A stretch of 64,000 nt of DNA from Minisyncoccota bacterium. GTDB taxonomy: Bacteria > Patescibacteriota > Minisyncoccia > Phycocordibacterales > XYD1-FULL-46-19. The translations under genes were made by a program, and so were the position numbers. How positions within the stretch are numbered: the stretch's first letter is position 1; each line of letters opens with the position of its first letter. Shown piece after piece: positions 6,392 through 41,568 of this stretch. The DNA lies in contig JBAZMZ010000003.1 of the NCBI GenBank assembly GCA_041649495.1, forward strand, positions 6,602 to 70,601, in the 5' to 3' direction. The notes beneath the pieces were generated by a model that was not told the DNA's origin, ran no database searches, and saw only the letters and a program-made list of their open reading frames with translations.

Positions 6392-6628
6392 GTGAAGAAT
6401 AACTACAAGAAAGAACAAGAGGTTAATTTTGTGGGGATGACGCTAGGAGAATTTATTGATTACTATAATGAAAACACGCCCGCGGCCATGCCTCGAGCAA
6501 CCAAAAACGCGCTTAAAGAATTTCAGACTTCTCACGCCAACATTTTTGACGAAAGTGGCCTCTGGACTATCGACAAACATCGTCGGCGCGTGATGGATTG
6601 GCTCTCCTCGTATCACGCCGAAGCTTAA
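6392..6628 (+). CDS. hypothetical small protein (GTG start)
   Basis: 78-aa ORF preceded by TGCTATACT and a GGGAG RBS; no recognisable domain. Confidence 0.3.
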   Translation: MKNNYKKEQEVNFVGMTLGEFIDYYNENTPAAMPRATKNALKEFQTSHANIFDESGLWTIDKHRRRVMDWLSSYHAEA

Positions 6629-6799
6629 TTTATTTAACTATGAAAAATACCGGCAAAGTGGGCAATAAAAAGGGGGCACCGAAATTTCGGACGCCATCAA
6701 CTTTTATGGCTAATCAGAGTTTAAAAAACAATTTTAAAGTTCAGAATAACTTCAAAAGTCGTCCAACCAAGGTCTTCAATCGCGGGAAATAAGTTAGTT

Positions 6800-7100
6800 C
6801 TAAAACTTTTTAGGCAAAAAGAAAAGCCAAGCTTGTCTTGTCTCATCGAAACCCCGGGGGATAAGGCTCTTTGAGATCGCTTGGCTTTCTGAGAGCCTGT
6901 CTTCTGTGAGGCAGAAGGAAAGGCTCTCTTTCGGGGGGAAGAACAAAAAGAAGGAAGCGAGCGGGGCGTGGATTGCCGCGGGCGAAGCGGGTGAGGCTTA
7001 CTTTTTCTGACACCCTGCCCACTTCCAACTCAAAGAATGTTTAATCTGCTTGGAAGTCTATCAGATTCCCCCAGAATATGCAAGTTTTGTCTATTTTTAT
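6800..7100. other. GC-rich structured intergenic region upstream of ppsA (leader, sRNA or convergent terminators)
   Basis: Long hairpins AAAGCCAAGC..GCTTGGCTTT and GAGAGCCTGTCTTCTG-TGAG-GCAGAAGGAAAGGCTCTC; overlapping ORFs on both strands have no protein character. Confidence 0.3.
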
Positions 7101-7122
7101 TAATCCTGTATAATTAACAGAT

Positions 7123-9555
7123 ATGGAAAAATCTAAAGAATTTATTATTTGGTTCAAGGATCTCGCTATCTCGGATATCCCCCTCGTCGGTGGCAAAAAC
7201 GCGGCGTTGGGTGAGATGTTTAATAATTTAGTGCAAATGGGAGTCAATGTGCCCAACGGTTTTGCCATTACGGCCTACGCCTATTCATATTTTCTTGAGA
7301 AAACGGGTTTGAAAAATAAAATTAAAGAAGTTCTCACCGATCTCGATACCCACAATATTCTTGATTTGCAAAAGCGAGGGCACAAGGTGCGTGAGTTGAT
7401 TATTAACGAAGAATTGCCCGAAGAATTGCGCGTTGAGATTATCTCGGCCTATCAAAAATTGAGTTCGAGTTATCATGCTAAAAATGTGGATGTCGCCGTG
7501 CGTTCCTCGGCCACGGCCGAAGATTTGCCGGGGGCCTCGTTTGCCGGTCAACAAGAAACTTTCCTCAATATCAATAGCGAGAAGGAATTAATGCTGGCCG
7601 TGCGCAAATGTATGGCCTCACTCTTCACCAATCGCGCCATTTCTTATCGCTTTGATAAAGGCTTCTCGATGTTTGATGTTTTGTTGTCGGTGGGGGTGCA
7701 AAAGATGGTGCGGAGTGACTTGGGCTCGTCGGGGGTGATGTTCTCAATTGATACCGAAACCGGTTTTGATAAAGTCGTCATCATCAATGCTTCTTATGGT
7801 TTGGGTGAGATGGTGGTCTTGGGTCGGGTAACACCCGACGAATACACGGTTTTCAAACCATCGCTCGAGCGTGGTTATCACTCAATTTTGTCAAAGACGC
7901 TTGGTCAGAAGGATGTTAAATTAATTTATGACAAGAAGGGGACAAAGCCGGTTAAAGTGTCGGTGGCCGACTTTAATAAATTTGCGTTAACCGATGACGA
8001 AATTACCAAATTGGCGGTTTGGGGAATGACGATCGAGAAATATTTTTCGAACAAACATAATCGCTATCAACCGATGGATATGGAGTGGGCTAAGGATGGC
8101 AAAACTGGCGAACTTTATATTGTTCAAGCTCGACCTGAGACGATTCATGCTGGCACCGACAAAAATGTTTACTCCGAATATGTTTTAGGCAAAAAAAGTA
8201 AAGAAATTCTTCGGGGCACCGCGATTGGCGCCAAGATTGCGTCAGGCCGAGTGCGAATTATTCGCGATGCCAAACAGATGAGCACTTTCAAGAAGGGTGA
8301 AATTTTGGTGACCGAAATTACCGATCCCGACTGGGAACCGATTATGAAGATTGCCTCGGCCATTATTACCGAGAAGGGCGGGCGCACTAGTCACGCGGCG
8401 ATTGTCTCGCGCGAGTTGGGCGTGCCGTGCATTGTGGGCACCGGTCAGGCCACAAAAAAATTAAAAAATAATCAATTGATTACCGTCGATTGTTCCTCGG
8501 GCAAAGATGGTATTGCTTATGAAGGTAAACTTGAATTTGAGGTCAAAGAGCATCATTTGGATCGCTTGCCCAAGACGCGAACGAAGGTGATGGTTAATAT
8601 TGGTTCACCCGAAGATGCTCGGCGCAATTTTCATTTGCCCACGGCGGGGGTGGGCCTGGGTCGGCTGGAATTTATCATCAGCTCGTATATTAAAGTTCAC
8701 CCTAATGCCCTTTTGAATTACAAAGAATTGCAAAGGAGTAAGGACCCGCGCGCCAAGAAGGCGGTGGCCTCAATCAACGAATTAGCTAAGGAATACAAAA
8801 ACAAAACTGATTATTATGTCGGCGAATTAGCCGAGGGCGTGTCGTTAATTGCGGCCGCTTTTTATCCTCACGATGTGATTATCCGTTTTTCGGATTTCAA
8901 AACCAACGAGTATCGCACGCTAATTGGCGGTGATTTGTATGAGCCGGAGGAGGAAAACCCGATGATTGGTTGGCGGGGCGCCTCGCGTTATTATGATCCC
9001 AAATTCCGCAAAGCGTTTGCGTTGGAGTGCAAGGCGCTCTACAAAGTGCGTCAGGAAATGGGCTTTGCCAATATTATCCCGATGATTCCTTTTTGCCGGA
9101 CCGTTGAGGAGGCTAAACAAGTGGTGGCGATTATGGAGGAGGCTGGTCTCGATCGCCAAGCGGATTCGTCACTCAAAATTTATGTGATGTGCGAAATTCC
9201 GTCGAATGTGACGGAGGCCGAAGAATTTCTCGAAATTTTTGACGGGATGTCGATTGGCTCGAATGATTTAACGCAATTAACGCTTGGCCTCGATCGTGAT
9301 TCGAATTTAATCAGCCATATTGCCAACGAGAATCATCCGTCGGTGAAAAAATTAATCGAAGTAGCGATTAGCGCTTGTCGACGAAATCACAAATACATCG
9401 GCATTTGCGGTCAGGCGCCGTCTGATTATCCCGAATATGCCGAGTTCTTGGTCAAAAATGGCATTGAGAGCATTTCGCTTAATCCTGATACTGTGATTAA
9501 AACTCTGCCTATTATCGAAGAAGCGGAGAAAAAATATCCAGCGCCTAATGCTTAA
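7123..9555 (+). CDS. ppsA: phosphoenolpyruvate synthase (pyruvate, water dikinase)
   Basis: N-terminal ATP-grasp (LVGGKNAALGEM), phosphohistidine mobile domain GGRTSHAAIVSRELGVPCIVG, C-terminal PEP-utilising domain; 810 aa. Confidence 0.9.
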   Translation: MEKSKEFIIWFKDLAISDIPLVGGKNAALGEMFNNLVQMGVNVPNGFAITAYAYSYFLEKTGLKNKIKEVLTDLDTHNILDLQKRGHKVRELIINEELPEELRVEIISAYQKLSSSYHAKNVDVAVRSSATAEDLPGASFAGQQETFLNINSEKELMLAVRKCMASLFTNRAISYRFDKGFSMFDVLLSVGVQKMVRSDLGSSGVMFSIDTETGFDKVVIINASYGLGEMVVLGRVTPDEYTVFKPSLERGYHSILSKTLGQKDVKLIYDKKGTKPVKVSVADFNKFALTDDEITKLAVWGMTIEKYFSNKHNRYQPMDMEWAKDGKTGELYIVQARPETIHAGTDKNVYSEYVLGKKSKEILRGTAIGAKIASGRVRIIRDAKQMSTFKKGEILVTEITDPDWEPIMKIASAIITEKGGRTSHAAIVSRELGVPCIVGTGQATKKLKNNQLITVDCSSGKDGIAYEGKLEFEVKEHHLDRLPKTRTKVMVNIGSPEDARRNFHLPTAGVGLGRLEFIISSYIKVHPNALLNYKELQRSKDPRAKKAVASINELAKEYKNKTDYYVGELAEGVSLIAAAFYPHDVIIRFSDFKTNEYRTLIGGDLYEPEEENPMIGWRGASRYYDPKFRKAFALECKALYKVRQEMGFANIIPMIPFCRTVEEAKQVVAIMEEAGLDRQADSSLKIYVMCEIPSNVTEAEEFLEIFDGMSIGSNDLTQLTLGLDRDSNLISHIANENHPSVKKLIEVAISACRRNHKYIGICGQAPSDYPEYAEFLVKNGIESISLNPDTVIKTLPIIEEAEKKYPAPNA

Positions 9556-24130: not shown

Positions 24131-24206
24131 GGGCTTGTAGCTCAGCTGGTAGAGCACTGCTATGGCATAGCAGGGGTCAGGGGTTCGAGCCCCCTCAAGT
24201 CCACCA
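24131..24206 (+). tRNA. tRNA-Ala (anticodon GGC), CCA encoded
   Basis: Cloverleaf GGGCTTG-TA-GCTC-AGCTGGTA-GAGC-A-CTGCT-ATGGCAT-AGCAG-GGGTC-AGGGG-TTCGAGC-CCCCT-CAAGTCC-A-CCA; G3:U70 Ala identity pair. Confidence 0.85.
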
Positions 24207-27994: not shown

Positions 27995-28067
27995 GGGCCC
28001 TTAGCTTAGTTGGTAGAGCGCCTGCTTTGCAAGCAGGAGGTCAGGAGTTCGAATCTCCTAGGGTCCA
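27995..28067 (+). tRNA. tRNA-Ala (anticodon UGC)
   Basis: GGGCCCT-TA-GCTT-AGTTGGTA-GAGC-G-CCTGC-TTTGCAA-GCAGG-AGGTC-AGGAG-TTCGAAT-CTCCT-AGGGTCC-A; G3:U70; no encoded CCA. Confidence 0.85.
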
Positions 28068-28069
28068 CT

Positions 28070-36039: not shown

Positions 36040-37077
36040 TCAAAAAAGAAACTCGTTTTCGTCATTGGTATTTTCCTCGGCCGAAGGAAGTGACAAGGTC
36101 AATTGCAAATTTGCCCTCTTTCGGTCCTCTCTCGCTTTCACCGCCTCCGAAGCCAAAATCTCGACCACCAGATAGCCCTTCTCCGGCCTGGTGTGGTCGA
36201 CTTTTAGCTGGATCGGACCAAGGCGCTTTCTGGCTCCGAGGTAAGCTTGTTGAGCGAGTGTCTCCTCTGGCGTAGCCGAGAGGTCCCAATCAACCAGTCG
36301 GGCAAGGTGGTAAATGTGCGGATTGTTCAAGCCGTGAGGCAAGAACTTAAACGTTTCGACCAAGAGATGATGGGGTAAGGAATTTCTAGCCAAAACCTCA
36401 ACCAACGGTCGAACTTGGGATAGCTGGCACCAACGGTTAAACGAATAACCGTTATGCCGGTAAGGCGCCAGACACAGGGCGATAAACCGCGCGAGCCCGA
36501 TCATTTGACGTTGCCGCTGCCGACTCACGTTAATCTCGGCCCAATAAGCATCGGCAATCAACGCCTGATCTTGGAGCGAGAAGCTGAAATGAACTCCTTT
36601 CTCCCACCAACGATAAGCACTTGAGCGGTCCAATTGGCCAACCCGACGAACATAATAAGCTCGCGGGCTCAATAACTTTGTCTGTCCGCCCGACTTCCAA
36701 CCGCTGATTTTCTGGTCAGCCAGTTGCTGAAGTGTTGCGAACAACCTGGGAGCAATCAGCAAGTATTGCTCTTCTGTTAGAGCAAAGTACTTGTGTCTTT
36801 GGGCAATCCACCCTCGCTCGGAGCTGTAAGCTGGACGATACGGTCGCGTTCGGCCAATGCCAATCTCGGCGAGCAAAACCTCTGGCTGATGAGTCACTCG
36901 GTCCCCAAGCGGTTTCTGCCCTTCGCCAATGATGGCGATGACATTTAACTCGGCCCGAGGATTAACCTTCTCCACGACCACCTCGTTGGGCGTTAGACGC
37001 CAGACGAAAGCGGCCTTTTCTCGAACCGCCCTTAAGTTTTCGGCCACAATGGCTGGCGAAAATCTTGGCTTTATCAT
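36040..37077 (-). CDS. hypothetical protein, high-GC island gene 1
   Basis: 345-aa ORF at ~55% GC versus ~40% flanking DNA; no motif recognised by eye; opposite strand to all neighbours. Confidence 0.5.
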   Translation of the reverse strand: MIKPRFSPAIVAENLRAVREKAAFVWRLTPNEVVVEKVNPRAELNVIAIIGEGQKPLGDRVTHQPEVLLAEIGIGRTRPYRPAYSSERGWIAQRHKYFALTEEQYLLIAPRLFATLQQLADQKISGWKSGGQTKLLSPRAYYVRRVGQLDRSSAYRWWEKGVHFSFSLQDQALIADAYWAEINVSRQRQRQMIGLARFIALCLAPYRHNGYSFNRWCQLSQVRPLVEVLARNSLPHHLLVETFKFLPHGLNNPHIYHLARLVDWDLSATPEETLAQQAYLGARKRLGPIQLKVDHTRPEKGYLVVEILASEAVKAREDRKRANLQLTLSLPSAEENTNDENEFLF

Positions 37078-37195
37078 TGCACTTCACCTCCTCTCCATTC
37101 TTCCAGTTAAGGGAAAATATCCCTGACAAGGTTCACCTGTTCAATCTGGCCTCATCTTAGGATTATCTCGGAAGTAAAGCAAGGGAAAAAGAAAA

Positions 37196-37226
37196 GGACG
37201 TCGGGGCTTTGGGCCGAACGACGTCC
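37196..37226. terminator. palindromic hairpin GGACGTCGGGGCTTTGGGCCGAACGACGTCC between the two island genes
   Basis: Perfect 9-bp stem immediately 3' of the stop of the 37228-38337 gene. Confidence 0.4.
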
Positions 37227-37227
37227 G

Positions 37228-38337
37228 TTAGAACAAGCAATCGGTTCTCGGGATTGGACAATCTACCCGTTCGATCCTGGCAAGTTGCCCGTACCCGTAA
37301 TAAGGGGAAGACGGGGCAATAAAACGACAGAATTTCTCGACCGGACAATGATGGCAAGGGTCGTCATAATTGGCTGGCCAGAGCGACGGATGCTCTTTTA
37401 GCGCTTGAGGCAGAGCGATCGGCTCGCCGACTCGTTGCCGAGTTTCTTTTCGGCCCCGAGTCCGATTCTGGAACTGATTAGCGCATCGCTCTCGAGACAA
37501 GACCCAAAGAGCCGGGTTAATTTGCCTAGTCTCGAAGCCGTTCAAAACCATGAACCACTGTGACCAACGCGCAATCGCGTCCGTGATATTCGAACCGATG
37601 CGGGTCATTTCAATCTCGTGCCAAGCCAGAAATTCAGGCTTAGTGACCTCACACGGGCGCATCTTCTTGAGAGTCACCACTCCCGTTCCTTGAAGCACGC
37701 GCAAAGCATGGAAGTCCACCGGGATGGGAGTAGGGAAGTCGGGCAAAATCTGATATTGTTGGAGAAAAATCACGAACAACGAAAAGATCTTCCGCCGAAT
37801 ACCGATTAACCCCTCTCCCTTAGACCCTTGCCGGTTCACTCGAGCAAAAGCTTGCTCAAATTCGAACACCCCATCAAAAACTCGCAGGATATTACCGTCC
37901 CAACGATTGACAAGGTAATTCGCATTGGCAATCCAAGCCCGAGCGTGTTCCTCGTCCTGATAGCCCATCACTCCTGTTCCCTTTTGGCCAGTCCCGTTAC
38001 CGCCCAAAAGTTGTTGAGTTGCTTCACGAAAGGCGCCGAGAATCTTCTCGACCGTCCACCCGCGAGCAACTTGTCGAGGGTCAAACAAGTCGGGATGACG
38101 CTCGAACAATGAGTGGAACCAACGAAAAGGATCGTCCGAGTTCACTGGTCCTCGCATCAAAAGTGAGGCAAAGATCAGGTAATTCGCTCTCGCGACCGGC
38201 TCGTCGGGCATCGGATAGCGATCTTGAGGATAAACCACTTCGGCGAAAACGCCTTCCTTACCTGCTATCGCTCGAGTCAGGGCCGTAAATACCTCAAACG
38301 CACGGCCCTCGTTTAATGTCACTGGGGATTCTTTCAT
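37228..38337 (-). CDS. HhH-GPD-superfamily DNA-glycosylase-like protein with C-terminal Cys cluster, high-GC island gene 2
   Basis: LIGIRRKIFSLFVIFL then PVDFHALRVLQGTGVV resemble the HhH motif plus Gly/Pro-rich loop and catalytic Asp of EndoIII/MutY-like enzymes; C-terminal CHHCPVEKFC (C-x2-C-x5-C) resembles a truncated FeS cluster loop; ~55% GC. Confidence 0.45.
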   Translation of the reverse strand: MKESPVTLNEGRAFEVFTALTRAIAGKEGVFAEVVYPQDRYPMPDEPVARANYLIFASLLMRGPVNSDDPFRWFHSLFERHPDLFDPRQVARGWTVEKILGAFREATQQLLGGNGTGQKGTGVMGYQDEEHARAWIANANYLVNRWDGNILRVFDGVFEFEQAFARVNRQGSKGEGLIGIRRKIFSLFVIFLQQYQILPDFPTPIPVDFHALRVLQGTGVVTLKKMRPCEVTKPEFLAWHEIEMTRIGSNITDAIARWSQWFMVLNGFETRQINPALWVLSRERCANQFQNRTRGRKETRQRVGEPIALPQALKEHPSLWPANYDDPCHHCPVEKFCRFIAPSSPYYGYGQLARIERVDCPIPRTDCLF

Positions 38338-38472
38338 TGAGGGCCACCTTTCTGCCAGAACTGCTTAACGGTTCGATTAAAAATGTTCAGACTCTGTTTC
38401 CAATCTTATTACTAACAGAGATTAGGAGCTTTGCCAAATTGAATTATTTAGGTTTCGTGTTAAAGTATTAGC

Positions 38473-41400
38473 ATGGGAAAAAAATCTAAGGGGAGCAAAT
38501 ACGATCATTTAAAAATAGAGTCTAAATGGCAACGTGAGTGGAGTCGTTCCAAAACTTATCAAACTACCGAAACGACCGGTTCGACAAGCTCACGGCAAGA
38601 ATCTAAACCCAAAGCTTATGTTTTAGATATGTTCCCGTATCCGTCGGGGGAGGGTTTGCATGTCGGCCACCCCAAGGGTTATATCGCCACGGATGTTTAT
38701 TCGCGCTTTAAACGAATGAGTGGTTTTAATGTCTTGCACCCCATGGGTTGGGATGCTTTTGGTTTACCGGCCGAGAATTATGCGATTAAAAATAAAATTA
38801 ATCCGGCCGTGGCGGTGAAGAAGAATATCAAACATTTTAAATCACAGATGGAAAAGATTGGGCTCGATTATGATTGGTCTCGCGAAATCAACACCACCGA
38901 CCCCAAATATTACAAATGGACCCAATGGATTTTCTTACAATTGTTCAAGCGGGGATTGGCTTACCAATCGAATGAGCCGATTAATTGGTGCCCGTCTTGT
39001 CAAACTGGTTTAGCCAATGAAGATTTGGAGACCCGTTCGACAAGCTCAGGGCAAGCGGCCGTCTGTGAGCGTTGTGGTTCGCTCGTGATCAAAAAACCGA
39101 TCCGCCAATGGGTGCTCAAAATTACTAATTACGCTGAACGGTTATTGACTGATTTGGACGGCTTAAATTGGCCCGAATCAATCAAAGAATCACAAAGAAA
39201 TTGGATTGGCCGAAGCGAAGGGGCTGAAATTGATTTTCCCCTTCAAACTGGACCCCTTAAGTTTGTCATCCTGCACGGATGGAAAAGTAATAGCCGGCGT
39301 TGTTTTATTCCCTGGCTCAAGCGCGAGCTCGAAGAACGAGGCCACGAAGTAGTCGCCTTGGATCTTCCTCATCCCGTCGTGCCCAATATTGCAGAGCAAG
39401 TTGATTACGTTTTATCTAAAGTGACGTTTGACGCCAACACCATAATTATCGCTCATTCACTGGGCTCAATCGCGGCTTATCGAATTCTCGAAAAATTAAA
39501 AACGCCCATCAAGAAATTAGTCATTGTCGCTGGCTTAATTGAGCCAAAATTTCGAGACAAGGCCCGACCCGAAGCCAAATATCTCTTAAGTTGGAAATTT
39601 AATTTGGCTAAAATTAAAAAGAATGCTGGCCAAATTGTCATTCTTGAAGATCAAAATGACAATATTATCCCCAAAGGCGAATCACGGGTGATCCAACAAG
39701 CCTTAGGGGGCGAGGTTTACCAACTCGAAGCCCAAACGGCTCACTTCTGCGGGTCCGTTGAGCCGTTAGTCCTAGGGCATAGCCTAGACCGAGTCAAGAT
39801 CTTCACCACCCGCGCCGACACCCTTTTTGGTGCCACTTATTTAGTCCTCGCGCCAGAACATAAATTGATTTCTCAATTAAAAAAAGAAATTAGCAATTGG
39901 GTTGAGGTCACAAAATATATTAAACAAGCAGAAAAAAGAACCGAGATCGAGAGATCGACTGAAGGCCGAGAAAAAACAGGGGTCAAACTCGAAGGCGTGA
40001 GAGCGATTAATCCGATCAATAATGAAGAAATCCCAATTTTTATTGCCGATTATGTCTTACCTGGTTATGGCACGGGCGCAATTATGGCCGTACCGGCCCA
40101 CGACGAACGCGACCATCAATTTGCCAAGAAATTTGATTTGCCAATTGTGCCGGTAATTATCAAGGATTTGCCGACCACTCTTGATCATGTCGCCGAGGCT
40201 TATACTGGTTCAGGAAAAATGGTTAACTCCGGCCGATGGAATGGCCTTGATAATGAGCAAGTGGTCGATCCAATGATTAAATTTGTCCGCGGGAAAAAAG
40301 TGATTCGCTACAAATTACGCGATTGGGTTTTTTCACGCCAACGTTATTGGGGCGAACCGATTCCAATTGTCCACTGTGCTAAGTGTGGTCCAATGCCTGT
40401 GCCCGAAAAAGATTTGCCGGTCAAATTGCCGGCAGTTAAAAGTTACGCCCCCACCGGCACCGGCGAATCGCCTCTGGCCAACATTAAAAGCTGGGTCAAT
40501 ACCAAATGTCCGGCTTGTGGCGGGCCAGCCCAACGCGAGACCAATACCATGCCCCAATGGGCGGGTTCGTCTTGGTATTATTTGCGCTATATCGACCCTA
40601 AGAACGACAAGGCTCTCGCTGATCCTAAGAAATTAAATTATTGGTCACCAGTCGATATGTATGTGGGAGGCACCGAGCATGCGACTCGTCACTTAATCTA
40701 CGCGCGATTTTGGCATAAGTTTTTGCAGGATATCGGCATCGTCAAAAATTCCGAGCCATTTGCCCAACTTAAAAATCAAGGTTTAATTTCTGGTTCTGAT
40801 GGGAGGAAGATGAGCAAGCGTTGGGGTAATGTCATTAACCCCGACGATATTATTAAGAGTCATGGCGCCGATACCTTGCGGGTTTATGAGATGTTTATGG
40901 GTCCGTTTGAACAAGGAGTGTCGTGGAGCACCGACAACCTAATGGGCGCGCGCCGTTTTGTGGAGAAAATTTGGCGGTTGAACGGGAAAGTCGTTCCCGA
41001 GGCTAAGGTTGTGCGAAGTACGACTTCGGGCTCACTTGAAGTCGGACTTCTCACGACTGAATCAGCTTCCGAGGTGAGTCCTCAAGTGAGCCCGAGGTCT
41101 CTCCTCGGAAACAATGACTTCCTTTTGCACAAAACCATCAAACAAGTGACCGACGATATCAATCGCTTCAATTTTAACACCGCGATTTCGGCCTTAATGA
41201 TTCTCGCCAACGATTGGGACAAACTCAAGCAAATTTCAATCACTGATTTCAAAATCTTGCTTAAATTATTGGCCCCGTTGGCCCCACATTTGAGCGAAGA
41301 ATTATGGCATAATTTGGGCGAGAAAAAATCAATTCATCTCTCAACCTGGCCCGTGGCCGATCCACAAAAATTGATAACGAAAGAGGTCAAAATCGTGGTC

Positions 41401-41568
41401 CAAATTAACGGCAAGGTCCGCGCAACCCTCGATTTGCCCGTCGGCCAGATTGAGGAAGAAGTCATTAATCTCGCCTTAGCCAACCCGATGGTACAAAAAT
41501 GGTTACCCGCTGGTCAATACAAAAAAACTATATTTATCAAGGATAAATTACTCAACTTTGTGTTATAA
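38473..41568 (+). CDS. leuS: leucine--tRNA ligase with an inserted YdeN/RBBP9-type alpha/beta-hydrolase domain and several in-frame repeat inserts
   Basis: HVGHPKGY (HIGH), KMSKRWGN (KMSKS), editing-domain and anticodon-binding regions; 1031 aa; hydrolase domain at 39241-39780; repeats at 38580, 39036 and 41015-41106. Confidence 0.9.
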   Translation: MGKKSKGSKYDHLKIESKWQREWSRSKTYQTTETTGSTSSRQESKPKAYVLDMFPYPSGEGLHVGHPKGYIATDVYSRFKRMSGFNVLHPMGWDAFGLPAENYAIKNKINPAVAVKKNIKHFKSQMEKIGLDYDWSREINTTDPKYYKWTQWIFLQLFKRGLAYQSNEPINWCPSCQTGLANEDLETRSTSSGQAAVCERCGSLVIKKPIRQWVLKITNYAERLLTDLDGLNWPESIKESQRNWIGRSEGAEIDFPLQTGPLKFVILHGWKSNSRRCFIPWLKRELEERGHEVVALDLPHPVVPNIAEQVDYVLSKVTFDANTIIIAHSLGSIAAYRILEKLKTPIKKLVIVAGLIEPKFRDKARPEAKYLLSWKFNLAKIKKNAGQIVILEDQNDNIIPKGESRVIQQALGGEVYQLEAQTAHFCGSVEPLVLGHSLDRVKIFTTRADTLFGATYLVLAPEHKLISQLKKEISNWVEVTKYIKQAEKRTEIERSTEGREKTGVKLEGVRAINPINNEEIPIFIADYVLPGYGTGAIMAVPAHDERDHQFAKKFDLPIVPVIIKDLPTTLDHVAEAYTGSGKMVNSGRWNGLDNEQVVDPMIKFVRGKKVIRYKLRDWVFSRQRYWGEPIPIVHCAKCGPMPVPEKDLPVKLPAVKSYAPTGTGESPLANIKSWVNTKCPACGGPAQRETNTMPQWAGSSWYYLRYIDPKNDKALADPKKLNYWSPVDMYVGGTEHATRHLIYARFWHKFLQDIGIVKNSEPFAQLKNQGLISGSDGRKMSKRWGNVINPDDIIKSHGADTLRVYEMFMGPFEQGVSWSTDNLMGARRFVEKIWRLNGKVVPEAKVVRSTTSGSLEVGLLTTESASEVSPQVSPRSLLGNNDFLLHKTIKQVTDDINRFNFNTAISALMILANDWDKLKQISITDFKILLKLLAPLAPHLSEELWHNLGEKKSIHLSTWPVADPQKLITKEVKIVVQINGKVRATLDLPVGQIEEEVINLALANPMVQKWLPAGQYKKTIFIKDKLLNFVL
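39241..39780 (+). other. inserted serine-hydrolase (YdeN/RBBP9, PF06821-like) domain within leuS
   Basis: LKFVILHGWKSNSRRCFIPWLKRELEERGHEVVALDLPHPVVP...IIIAHSLGSIAAYRILEK...VIVAGLIEP...IVILEDQNDNIIP...VYQLEAQTAHF parallels B. subtilis YdeN (IIHGY..HWFPWLKK..LVAHSLG..VSGF..VIASKDDQIVP..LYEV..GHF), including the GxSxG nucleophile and Asp/His positions. Confidence 0.7.
41015..41106. repeat. two mini-elements in-frame near the leuS C-terminal region
   Basis: GAAGTACGACTTC-GGGCTCACTT-GAAGTCGGACTTC (spacer is the reverse complement of AAGTGAGCCC) then GAGGTGAGTCCTCAAGTGAGCCCGAGGTCTCTCCTCGG, identical to uvrC 18389. Confidence 0.85.

Follow-up and report, generated by a model that had tools for sequence, protein, structure and literature searches.

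We analyzed a 64,000-nucleotide (nt) stretch of the forward strand from a Minisyncoccota bacterium (contig JBAZMZ010000003.1, positions 6,602 to 70,601; hereafter the window), in which the leuS gene for a bacterial-type leucyl-tRNA synthetase (LeuRS) carries an inserted α/β serine hydrolase domain of the YdeN/RBBP9 type (Table 1). The open reading frame (ORF) runs uninterrupted through 1031 codons on the plus strand, with no stop, N, or frameshift. The profile for bacterial LeuRS, TIGR00396 (leuS_bact), matched the protein with 1014 bits against a cutoff of 548.4, and the match fell into two stretches flanking the insert. An AlphaFold2 model of the full-length LeuRS (pLDDT 89.2, pTM 0.81) found its best Foldseek matches in the LeuRS structures of Thermus thermophilus, Escherichia coli, and Neisseria gonorrhoeae (2bte, 4aq7, and 5omw; TMt 0.82–0.85). 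The class I signatures were present as HVGH (residues 63–66) and KMSKR (residues 779–783), and the protein shares its domain order and its TTRxDT and HDxRD motifs with canonical bacterial LeuRS (T. thermophilus 1h3n/2bte and E. coli 4aq7). The editing role of the threonine-rich motif is established for the E. coli and T. thermophilus enzymes. Judged from its sequence, the host LeuRS looks fully functional, with the HIGH and KMSKS signatures, the editing motifs of the CP1 domain, and the anticodon-binding domain all intact.

Table 1. Features of the leuS locus and RNA genes in the window (aa, LeuRS residue numbers)
Feature	Position	Strand	Basis
leuS 5′ leader motif TTTCGTGTTAAAGTAT, ending 4 nt before the ATG	38453..38468	+	single occurrence in the 64-kb window
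leuS, bacterial-type leucyl-tRNA synthetase, host of the insertion	38473..41568	+	ORF list, TIGR00396, AlphaFold2, Foldseek
LeuRS N-terminal catalytic half, ending with the β-strand GRSEGAEIDFPLQT that leads into CP1	38473..39249	+	Pfam tRNA-synt_1, aa 19-245
YdeN/RBBP9-type α/β serine hydrolase insert, aa 260-439	39250..39789	+	PF06821, PDB sequence search, AlphaFold2, Foldseek
H268-G269, HG oxyanion-hole motif	39274..39279	+	aligns with YdeN
Ser329, predicted catalytic nucleophile, in AHSLG	39457..39459	+	aligns with the nucleophile elbow of YdeN and RBBP9
Asp396, predicted catalytic acid, in EDQNDNIIP	39658..39660	+	aligns with the D of YdeN DDQIVP
His424, predicted catalytic histidine, in AHF	39742..39744	+	aligns with YdeN GHF
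CP1 editing domain proper, resuming past the insert	39790..40281	+	PF13603, aa 439-603, 200 bits
Threonine-rich editing motif TTRADT, aa 445-450	39805..39822	+	sequence; columns at least 90% conserved in a 90-sequence alignment
HDERD editing motif, aa 543-547, counterpart of E. coli HDQRD	40099..40113	+	sequence; at least 90% conserved in the 90-sequence alignment
LeuRS C-terminal catalytic half with anticodon-binding and C-terminal domains	40282..41565	+	Pfam Anticodon_1, aa 885-992; TIGR00396, aa 438-1031
tRNA-Ala(GGC)	24131-24206		with tRNA-Ala(UGC), the only RNA genes detected in the window
tRNA-Ala(UGC)	27995-28068		

A sequence-only reading of the window had claimed a genuine in-frame fusion, within a continuous ORF of 1031 residues, of a complete YdeN/RBBP9-type hydrolase at the entry of the CP1 editing domain (nt 39241–39780). 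The continuity of the ORF was borne out, and the window sequence contains neither an N nor a frame break in this region. Alignment to the T. thermophilus LeuRS sequence likewise upheld the location at the CP1 entry: residues 220–259 of the window protein align with T. thermophilus residues 199–238 and residues 440–515 with 242–315. Since residues 259 and 440 stand opposite Gly-238 and Arg-242 in this alignment to the PDB sequences, the insert comprises residues 260–439; the claimed insert was thus confirmed, with its exact borders lying 9 nt further right. It takes the place of a three-residue β-turn (T. thermophilus residues 239–241) at the tip of the first CP1 β-hairpin, so that canonical LeuRS has a three-residue turn or a short loop where the window protein has 180 residues, and the solved LeuRS structures contain no extra enzymatic domain at this site. 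The end of the hydrolase and the TTRADT motif are five residues apart.

The junctions read PLQT/GPLK and HSLD/RVKI, and in the full-length AlphaFold2 model both linkers had a pLDDT of ~93 and the inserted domain values of 92–97. The insert has a GC content of 0.43–0.46 (0.43–0.47 across the claimed region), equal to the value for the surrounding leuS sequence. Repeats flanking the insert did not exceed chance, and a scan for internal promoters and terminators at the domain borders gave nothing above the shuffled expectation. An intein or another mobile element was rejected as the identity of the insert because the domain is an α/β hydrolase rather than a HINT fold and has neither splice-junction residues, flanking repeats, nor a GC shift.

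The identity of the inserted domain was supported by profile, sequence, and structure comparisons. Pfam PF06821 (Ser_hydrolase) matched residues 264–420 with 39 bits in the whole protein and with 44 bits when the 180 residues were excised, against a gathering cutoff of 22, and the match of the excised domain spanned model positions 1–150 of 172. A PDB sequence search with the 180 residues retrieved Bacillus subtilis YdeN (1uxo, E=7.9e-15) and human RBBP9 (2qs9/7oex/9fcr, E~1e-8). The hydrolase domain modeled alone reached a pLDDT of 96.1, and its Foldseek comparison gave YdeN 1uxo (TM 0.82/0.81, root-mean-square deviation 2.8 Å over 185 columns) and RBBP9 (TM 0.81–0.83, 24% identity), with the next folds at TMt ≤0.55 except for the YdeN-like 3bdv. 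Each of the motifs that the sequence-only reading had named (HG, PWLK, LPxPxxP, AHSLG, the acid D396, and H424-F) aligned with YdeN, and its proposal of a complete serine hydrolase of this type agrees with the significant PF06821 score, the PDB matches, and the predicted fold. The insert is therefore a member of PF06821 by its profile, its fold, and its triad and oxyanion positions, and its activity is predicted.

YdeN is the best match in both sequence and fold, sharing the compact, lidless domain of ~180 residues, the HG motif, the AHSLG elbow, and the Asp and His positions. YdeN is, however, a free-standing orphan, whereas the window copy is an internal LeuRS domain and belongs to a sub-lineage with two features of its own: an extended loop that follows strand 5 and bears a PxFxD motif, which is gapped in most free-standing relatives, and a conserved C-terminal E-P motif. 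RBBP9, whose structures include one with bound Phe (7oex), has the same Pfam family, fold, and Ser-Asp-His triad and is the only family member with known activities. Unlike the window domain, it is eukaryotic and free-standing and has no known link to an aminoacyl-tRNA synthetase, and its aromatic specificity is not transferable to the window domain.

To follow the catalytic residues, we used an alignment of 153 domains, of which 71 are embedded in larger proteins and 72 are free-standing. All 71 fused copies have Ser at the position of Ser329, and His at the position of His424 is invariant in both the fused (71/71) and the free-standing (72/72) copies. The position of Asp396 is acidic in 66 of the 71 fused copies (D in 45, E in 21) and is D in 71/72 free-standing ones, while the HG motif is kept in the fused copies almost without exception (H 71/71, G 69/71). 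Since the triad and the HG motif are retained although the fused copies are just 32–46% identical overall to the window domain, this pattern indicates selection on catalysis, that is, on the predicted catalytic machinery of the hydrolase.

Editing motifs of the host enzymes are also retained. Both TTRxDT and HDxRD were kept in 39 of the 45 hydrolase-bearing sequences screened, and four of the six exceptions are apparently short fragments (165–676 residues), leaving P0018 and P0052 as real exceptions. With the fragments discounted, both motifs are thus present in about 39/41, and replacement of a degenerate CP1 editing site by the hydrolase was rejected as a general rule; the retained motifs imply that the hydrolase adds to CP1 instead of standing in for it.

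The fusion in the window is not an isolated case. A scan of one genome per GTDB species for related loci found four with a domain identity of 66–80% (L005–L008), named Candidatus Paceibacterota and, in one case, Saccharibacteria, in which the N-terminal part of LeuRS, the hydrolase, and CP1 lie in a single frame; two of them (L007 and L008) span the complete protein. The fusion also occurs in an assembly of Candidatus Vogelbacteria (L004), where a 50-N scaffold gap is the only interruption. These five loci derive from different metagenome-assembled genome projects and share the same in-frame site, reproducing the window architecture as a genuine fusion rather than a neighboring gene.

Searched exhaustively with the domain as the HMMER query, 1.84 billion cluster representatives yielded 1311 matches. 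The long matches listed were mapped onto segments of the window LeuRS and their junctions inspected, which distinguished three insertion sites in LeuRS: site A before CP1, as in the window; site B after CP1, in the zinc-binding loop between HCxxC and G..PVPE.DLP; and site C inside CP1, after HDQRDFxFAKKYxLP. Among the 153 full-length domains, 41 occupy site A, eight probably do so in N-terminally truncated proteins, 11 occupy site B, and one occupies site C. LeuRS is the commonest host, accounting for ~60 of the 71 fused copies. A further protein search, with the domain profile, returned almost exclusively short free-standing proteins. This hydrolase lineage is therefore inserted in dozens of LeuRS clusters of Patescibacteria/Paceibacterota at no fewer than three sites and is not unique to the window; the architecture is widespread, uses several insertion sites, and alternates with a separate hydrolase gene immediately upstream of leuS. 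Some proteins of this set, including P0007, P0008, P0013, and P0072, start at or shortly ahead of the hydrolase and extend across CP1 to cover the LeuRS C-terminal half, which could reflect gene calls cut short or LeuRS genes that are truly split. In P0013, a further ~200 residues carrying a Ham1-like motif separate the hydrolase from CP1; the Pfam match for this motif was not significant.

The gene neighborhoods of the free-standing relatives provided a second line of evidence. The closest database relative of the window domain is itself a free-standing protein of 185 residues (P0001, 69% identity), encoded 49 nt upstream of an 817-residue leuS on L001. This contig is syntenic with the window (RND, MacB, ABC transporter, ..., leuS, and a sigma70_r4/HARE-HTH gene); the next L001 gene has a DUF8128 match, and its counterpart in the window has no Pfam match at E≤0.001. 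We examined the neighborhoods of P0001 and of six more free-standing members of the LeuRS-associated sub-lineage. Five of these seven genes (P0001, P0005, P0012, P0020, and P0271) lie directly upstream of leuS. P0016 belongs to an operon of two hydrolase genes, a YbaK-like deacylase gene, a Ham1-like gene, and a gene for an archaeal-type LeuRS (NF008957, 657 bits, from a partial ORF), so that six of the seven are in leuS operons. P0010 lies on a 3-kb contig and is not adjacent to leuS on the visible part. Three more distant YdeN-like genes (P0274, P0287, and P0311) were all away from leuS (3/3), and the association with leuS is therefore specific to this sub-lineage. It spans two non-orthologous types of LeuRS. 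Together, the gene neighborhoods favor a real functional link between the hydrolase and LeuRS. The P0016 operon corresponds to locus L015 (3501–7549, GCA_020049755.1), where the two hydrolase genes stand in tandem, the deacylase gene is of the YbaK/EbsC-like tRNA_edit type, and the Ham1-like gene is Ham1/RdgB-like.

The L001 locus points to how the fused and free forms may interconvert. The 16-nt leader immediately before the window leuS, TTTCRTGTTAAAGTAT, has no second copy in the 64 kb, and L001 contains exactly two copies, one before leuS and one before the free-standing hydrolase gene; the leader is partly conserved in L004. The L001 hydrolase begins with MGNDSTKQKY, the L001 LeuRS with MKNNSKASKY, and the window LeuRS with MGKKSKGSKY, and the L001 hydrolase gene carries a duplicate of the leuS leader together with roughly its first 10 codons. 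When the two 5′ regions of L001 were aligned locally, the score was 69, compared with 28.7 ± 5 for shuffled sequences (maximum 45). A weaker echo of the duplication was seen in L016, and none in L009 and L014. In addition, P0001 nests among the site A fused copies, being 76% identical to P0154, 74% to P0153, and 69% to the window domain. Since the hydrolase gene has a duplicated leuS leader and start and its product nests within the fused copies, the free hydrolase of L001 is most simply read as a released fused domain that kept the start and leader of leuS. The hydrolase would then evidently be worth keeping and co-expressing with LeuRS even when detached. The core of the leader, TGnTAAAGT, resembles an extended −10 element, and its position close to the ATG would give an almost leaderless mRNA; a generic promoter scan made no call at the motif, and its role as a promoter or leader is putative.

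The LeuRS proteins beside the free-standing copies are mostly canonical, and only that of L001 lacks the threonine-rich motif. The L001 leuS gene (6607–9060) encodes a protein 63% identical overall to the window LeuRS, with a far more divergent CP1 in which YDSIPQT stands in place of TTRxDT and HDERD is retained; this LeuRS may be editing-impaired, or its CP1 may have been swapped via recombination. The window LeuRS also has a Ser/Thr-rich segment (nt 40999–41100, residues 843–876) ahead of the anticodon-binding domain, of which ~29 of the 34 residues are missing from the L001 orthologue. Residues 850–877 are disordered in the AlphaFold2 model (pLDDT < 50), and smaller additional Ser/Thr-rich stretches lie at residues 31–45 and ~187–195.

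The domain was also found outside LeuRS, in ValRS (P0034), AlaRS (P0074), Fmt (P0122), TsaD (P0039), Der (P0040), SecA (P0045), and UvrA (P0098). The nearest neighbors of these copies, Fmt excepted, are mostly LeuRS site A domains at 37–46% identity, whereas a C-terminal adenylate kinase fusion (P0134) groups instead with the classical free-standing clade. Since the same lineage occurs in various hosts, the domain is able to pass from one host to another. Among these hosts, ValRS, AlaRS, and Fmt act on or produce aminoacyl-tRNA, whereas Der, SecA, UvrA, and TsaD have no aminoacyl-group role.

Nor is the hydrolase the only enzymatic module inserted in these synthetases. A NUDIX domain (PF00293) of ~160 residues lies inside CP1 in many related LeuRS proteins (among them L007 3194-6745, L016 4062-6935, P0153, P0017, and P0157), between residues equivalent to window CP1 residues 123 and 137, and occurs with or without the serine hydrolase. 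Pfam detected no NUDIX domain in the window LeuRS, although relatives with 69–74% identical hydrolase domains have one. With the serine hydrolase and NUDIX domains inserted and Ham1- and YbaK-like genes in a neighboring operon, LeuRS of candidate phyla radiation (CPR) bacteria acts as a scaffold for several clean-up hydrolases.

What the hydrolase might act on was considered from RBBP9. This aminopeptidase removes hydrophobic and aromatic residues from N-termini, strictly needs a free α-amine, and forms an aminoacyl adduct on its catalytic Ser75 (PMC8866121); it also activates valacyclovir, an L-valyl ester, according to Shenoy et al. 2020 as cited in PMC7730578. The two activities make an α-aminoacyl ester, thioester, anhydride, or amide the likely substrate class, from which we infer that the window domain would act on the chemical class to which aminoacyl-tRNA and aminoacyl-AMP belong. 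We therefore propose, with a probability of roughly 0.5, that the insert actively hydrolyzes aminoacyl esters or amides and is coupled to LeuRS, to which it adds a proofreading or house-cleaning activity. A proofreading or house-cleaning role is preferred because the modules encoded nearby or co-inserted (YbaK-like deacylase, NUDIX, and Ham1) are clean-up hydrolases.

In the mechanism that we envisage, Ser329 would attack the carbonyl of the α-aminoacyl ester, thioester, anhydride, or amide, the leaving group would be released with formation of an aminoacyl-enzyme, and water activated by His424 and Asp396 would then hydrolyze this intermediate. Its targets would be products of LeuRS mis-activation, for example mischarged tRNA-Leu, released non-cognate aminoacyl-adenylate, or derived esters and thiolactones. 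The hydrolase would supplement the intact CP1 editing site rather than replace CP1. Since the domain is found at several insertion sites and in a separate-protein form, co-localization or co-expression with LeuRS is probably what is needed, not a fixed CP1 geometry.

Several observations weigh against this proposal. Insertions in Der, TsaD, SecA, and UvrA are the pattern expected of a promiscuous passenger, and the LeuRS insertion sites are not all close to the editing pocket, so that the adjacency to CP1 may be incidental. The intact CP1 motifs leave no evident unmet need for a second deacylase. The substrate assignment leans on a distant eukaryotic homologue with ~24% identity, in which Glu108 anchors the amine; this residue aligns with Ala364 of the window domain, and the nearby Asp362, in the PxFxD loop, is kept in only 39 of the 71 fused copies.

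The first alternative is that the domain is an active enzyme whose substrate is unrelated to leucylation and which has lodged in or next to permissive loops of highly expressed essential proteins; reduced CPR genomes that favor fusion and co-expression, together with a compact fold tolerant of insertion, could be the cause. The spread of one lineage over Der, TsaD, SecA, UvrA, Fmt, ValRS, and AlaRS, the use of three distinct sites in LeuRS, the insertion of unrelated hydrolases (NUDIX and possibly Ham1-like) in the same synthetases, and the free-standing state of most of the wider YdeN family, away from leuS, are all consistent with it. On the other hand, LeuRS is overwhelmingly the main host, six of the seven free copies of the sub-lineage are in leuS operons (in one case alongside a YbaK-like deacylase and a LeuRS of the archaeal type), and the hydrolase retained the leuS expression signal after the fission in L001. 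Such repeated return to one partner is not expected at random, and we regard this alternative as unlikely.

Supply of amino acids is another possible role. CPR bacteria rely on amino-acid scavenging, and an RBBP9-like aminopeptidase that clips Leu and other residues from scavenged peptides would feed the synthetase and be useful to auxotrophic cells. The ties to LeuRS by fusion or operon, and the occasional ones to ValRS and AlaRS, would fit such substrate channeling, as would the action of RBBP9 on hydrophobic and aromatic N-terminal residues (PMC8866121). Channeling of a freely diffusible amino acid would, however, bring only a small gain, the company of the YbaK-like deacylase, NUDIX, and Ham1 suggests clean-up, and the fusions to Der, SecA, UvrA, and TsaD are at odds with it; a supply role is thus improbable in our estimation.

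RBBP9 was originally described as a protein-binding factor, and a domain sitting on the mobile CP1 could conceivably modulate its swivel between conformations. The insert would then be a non-catalytic structural, regulatory, or binding module (for tRNA, the ribosome, or a partner protein) that kept its triad through recent ancestry, which is very hard to reconcile with the invariance of Ser and His in 71 fused copies at 32–46% identity and of HG in 69–71/71. Finally, we rejected a mis-assembly, chimeric contig, or frameshift that joined a hydrolase gene to leuS, an explanation with virtually no chance of being correct: the separate hydrolase gene beside leuS in the closest syntenic contig, L001, and the scaffold gap within the domain in L004 speak for it, but the window sequence is clean, both junctions are in frame with uniform GC and well-modeled linkers (AlphaFold2 pLDDT ~93), and the same fusion recurs in five further assemblies, with identical junctions in L005–L008 and in dozens of database proteins from independent projects.

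Under the proofreading or house-cleaning proposal, the hydrolase resembles known editing factors (YbaK/ProXp/INS, AlaXp, DTD, ThrRS N2, and CP1) in its proposed role and in being fused or separately encoded nearby, and differs from them in that their fold and catalytic mechanism are unrelated to the predicted Ser-His-Asp hydrolase. No homology of the insert to CP1, INS/YbaK/ProXp, AlaX, DTD, or ThrRS N2 was found by sequence or fold, by which it matches only α/β hydrolases, so that working like an editing factor is a hypothesis about the domain and not a classification of it. Association with a cognate synthetase, as in the editing families, is present (fusions at ≥3 LeuRS sites and leuS operons in 6/7). 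Editing by synthetases is thought to depend on a small closed set of hydrolytic folds; to our knowledge, none of the known editing families uses a Ser-His-Asp acyl-enzyme mechanism, and we know of no LeuRS-dedicated trans-editing factor that has been described. A further step, which we regard as possible but doubtful, would make the domain a new, fold-unrelated class of synthetase proofreading enzyme that deacylates mischarged tRNA-Leu or destroys non-cognate aminoacyl-adenylates or thiolactones via an aminoacyl-serine, acting in cis in the fused form and in trans as a free-standing protein. If true, it would be the first LeuRS-dedicated trans-editing factor and the first physiological role for the bacterial YdeN family. 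If the domain is instead a passenger, the pattern stays informative: a single enzyme domain that hops among loops of essential proteins of translation would represent an uncommon route to genome compaction.

The repeated fusion and the adjacency to leuS amount to Rosetta-stone plus operon evidence for an undescribed partnership, and they offer the orphan bacterial YdeN/RBBP9 family a testable hypothesis, the hydrolysis of aminoacyl groups with a free α-amine. Full-text literature searching, with paywalled papers outside its reach, found no description of an α/β hydrolase or NUDIX domain inside LeuRS, in keeping with the view of the sequence-only reading that the arrangement is undescribed for LeuRS. 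Such proteins are publicly annotated as "alpha/beta fold hydrolase, partial", "class I tRNA ligase family protein", or "leucine--tRNA ligase, partial". That a class I synthetase can bear an additional enzymatic domain has a precedent in NCBIfam NF040702, IleRS with an N-acetyltransferase domain; there the host is IleRS and the added domain a GNAT, and the window protein matches this model via the IleRS-like core only (71 bits against a cutoff of 1999).

Elsewhere in the window, no rRNA or riboswitch was detected at Rfam gathering thresholds. Just upstream of leuS, in a region that is almost wholly plus-strand, two adjoining ORFs of 345 and 369 residues lie on the minus strand (36040–38337), with a GC content of ~52% compared with ~44% around them. 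The pair has no Pfam matches and is not present on the syntenic contig L001; because of this absence, it is probably a recently acquired island.

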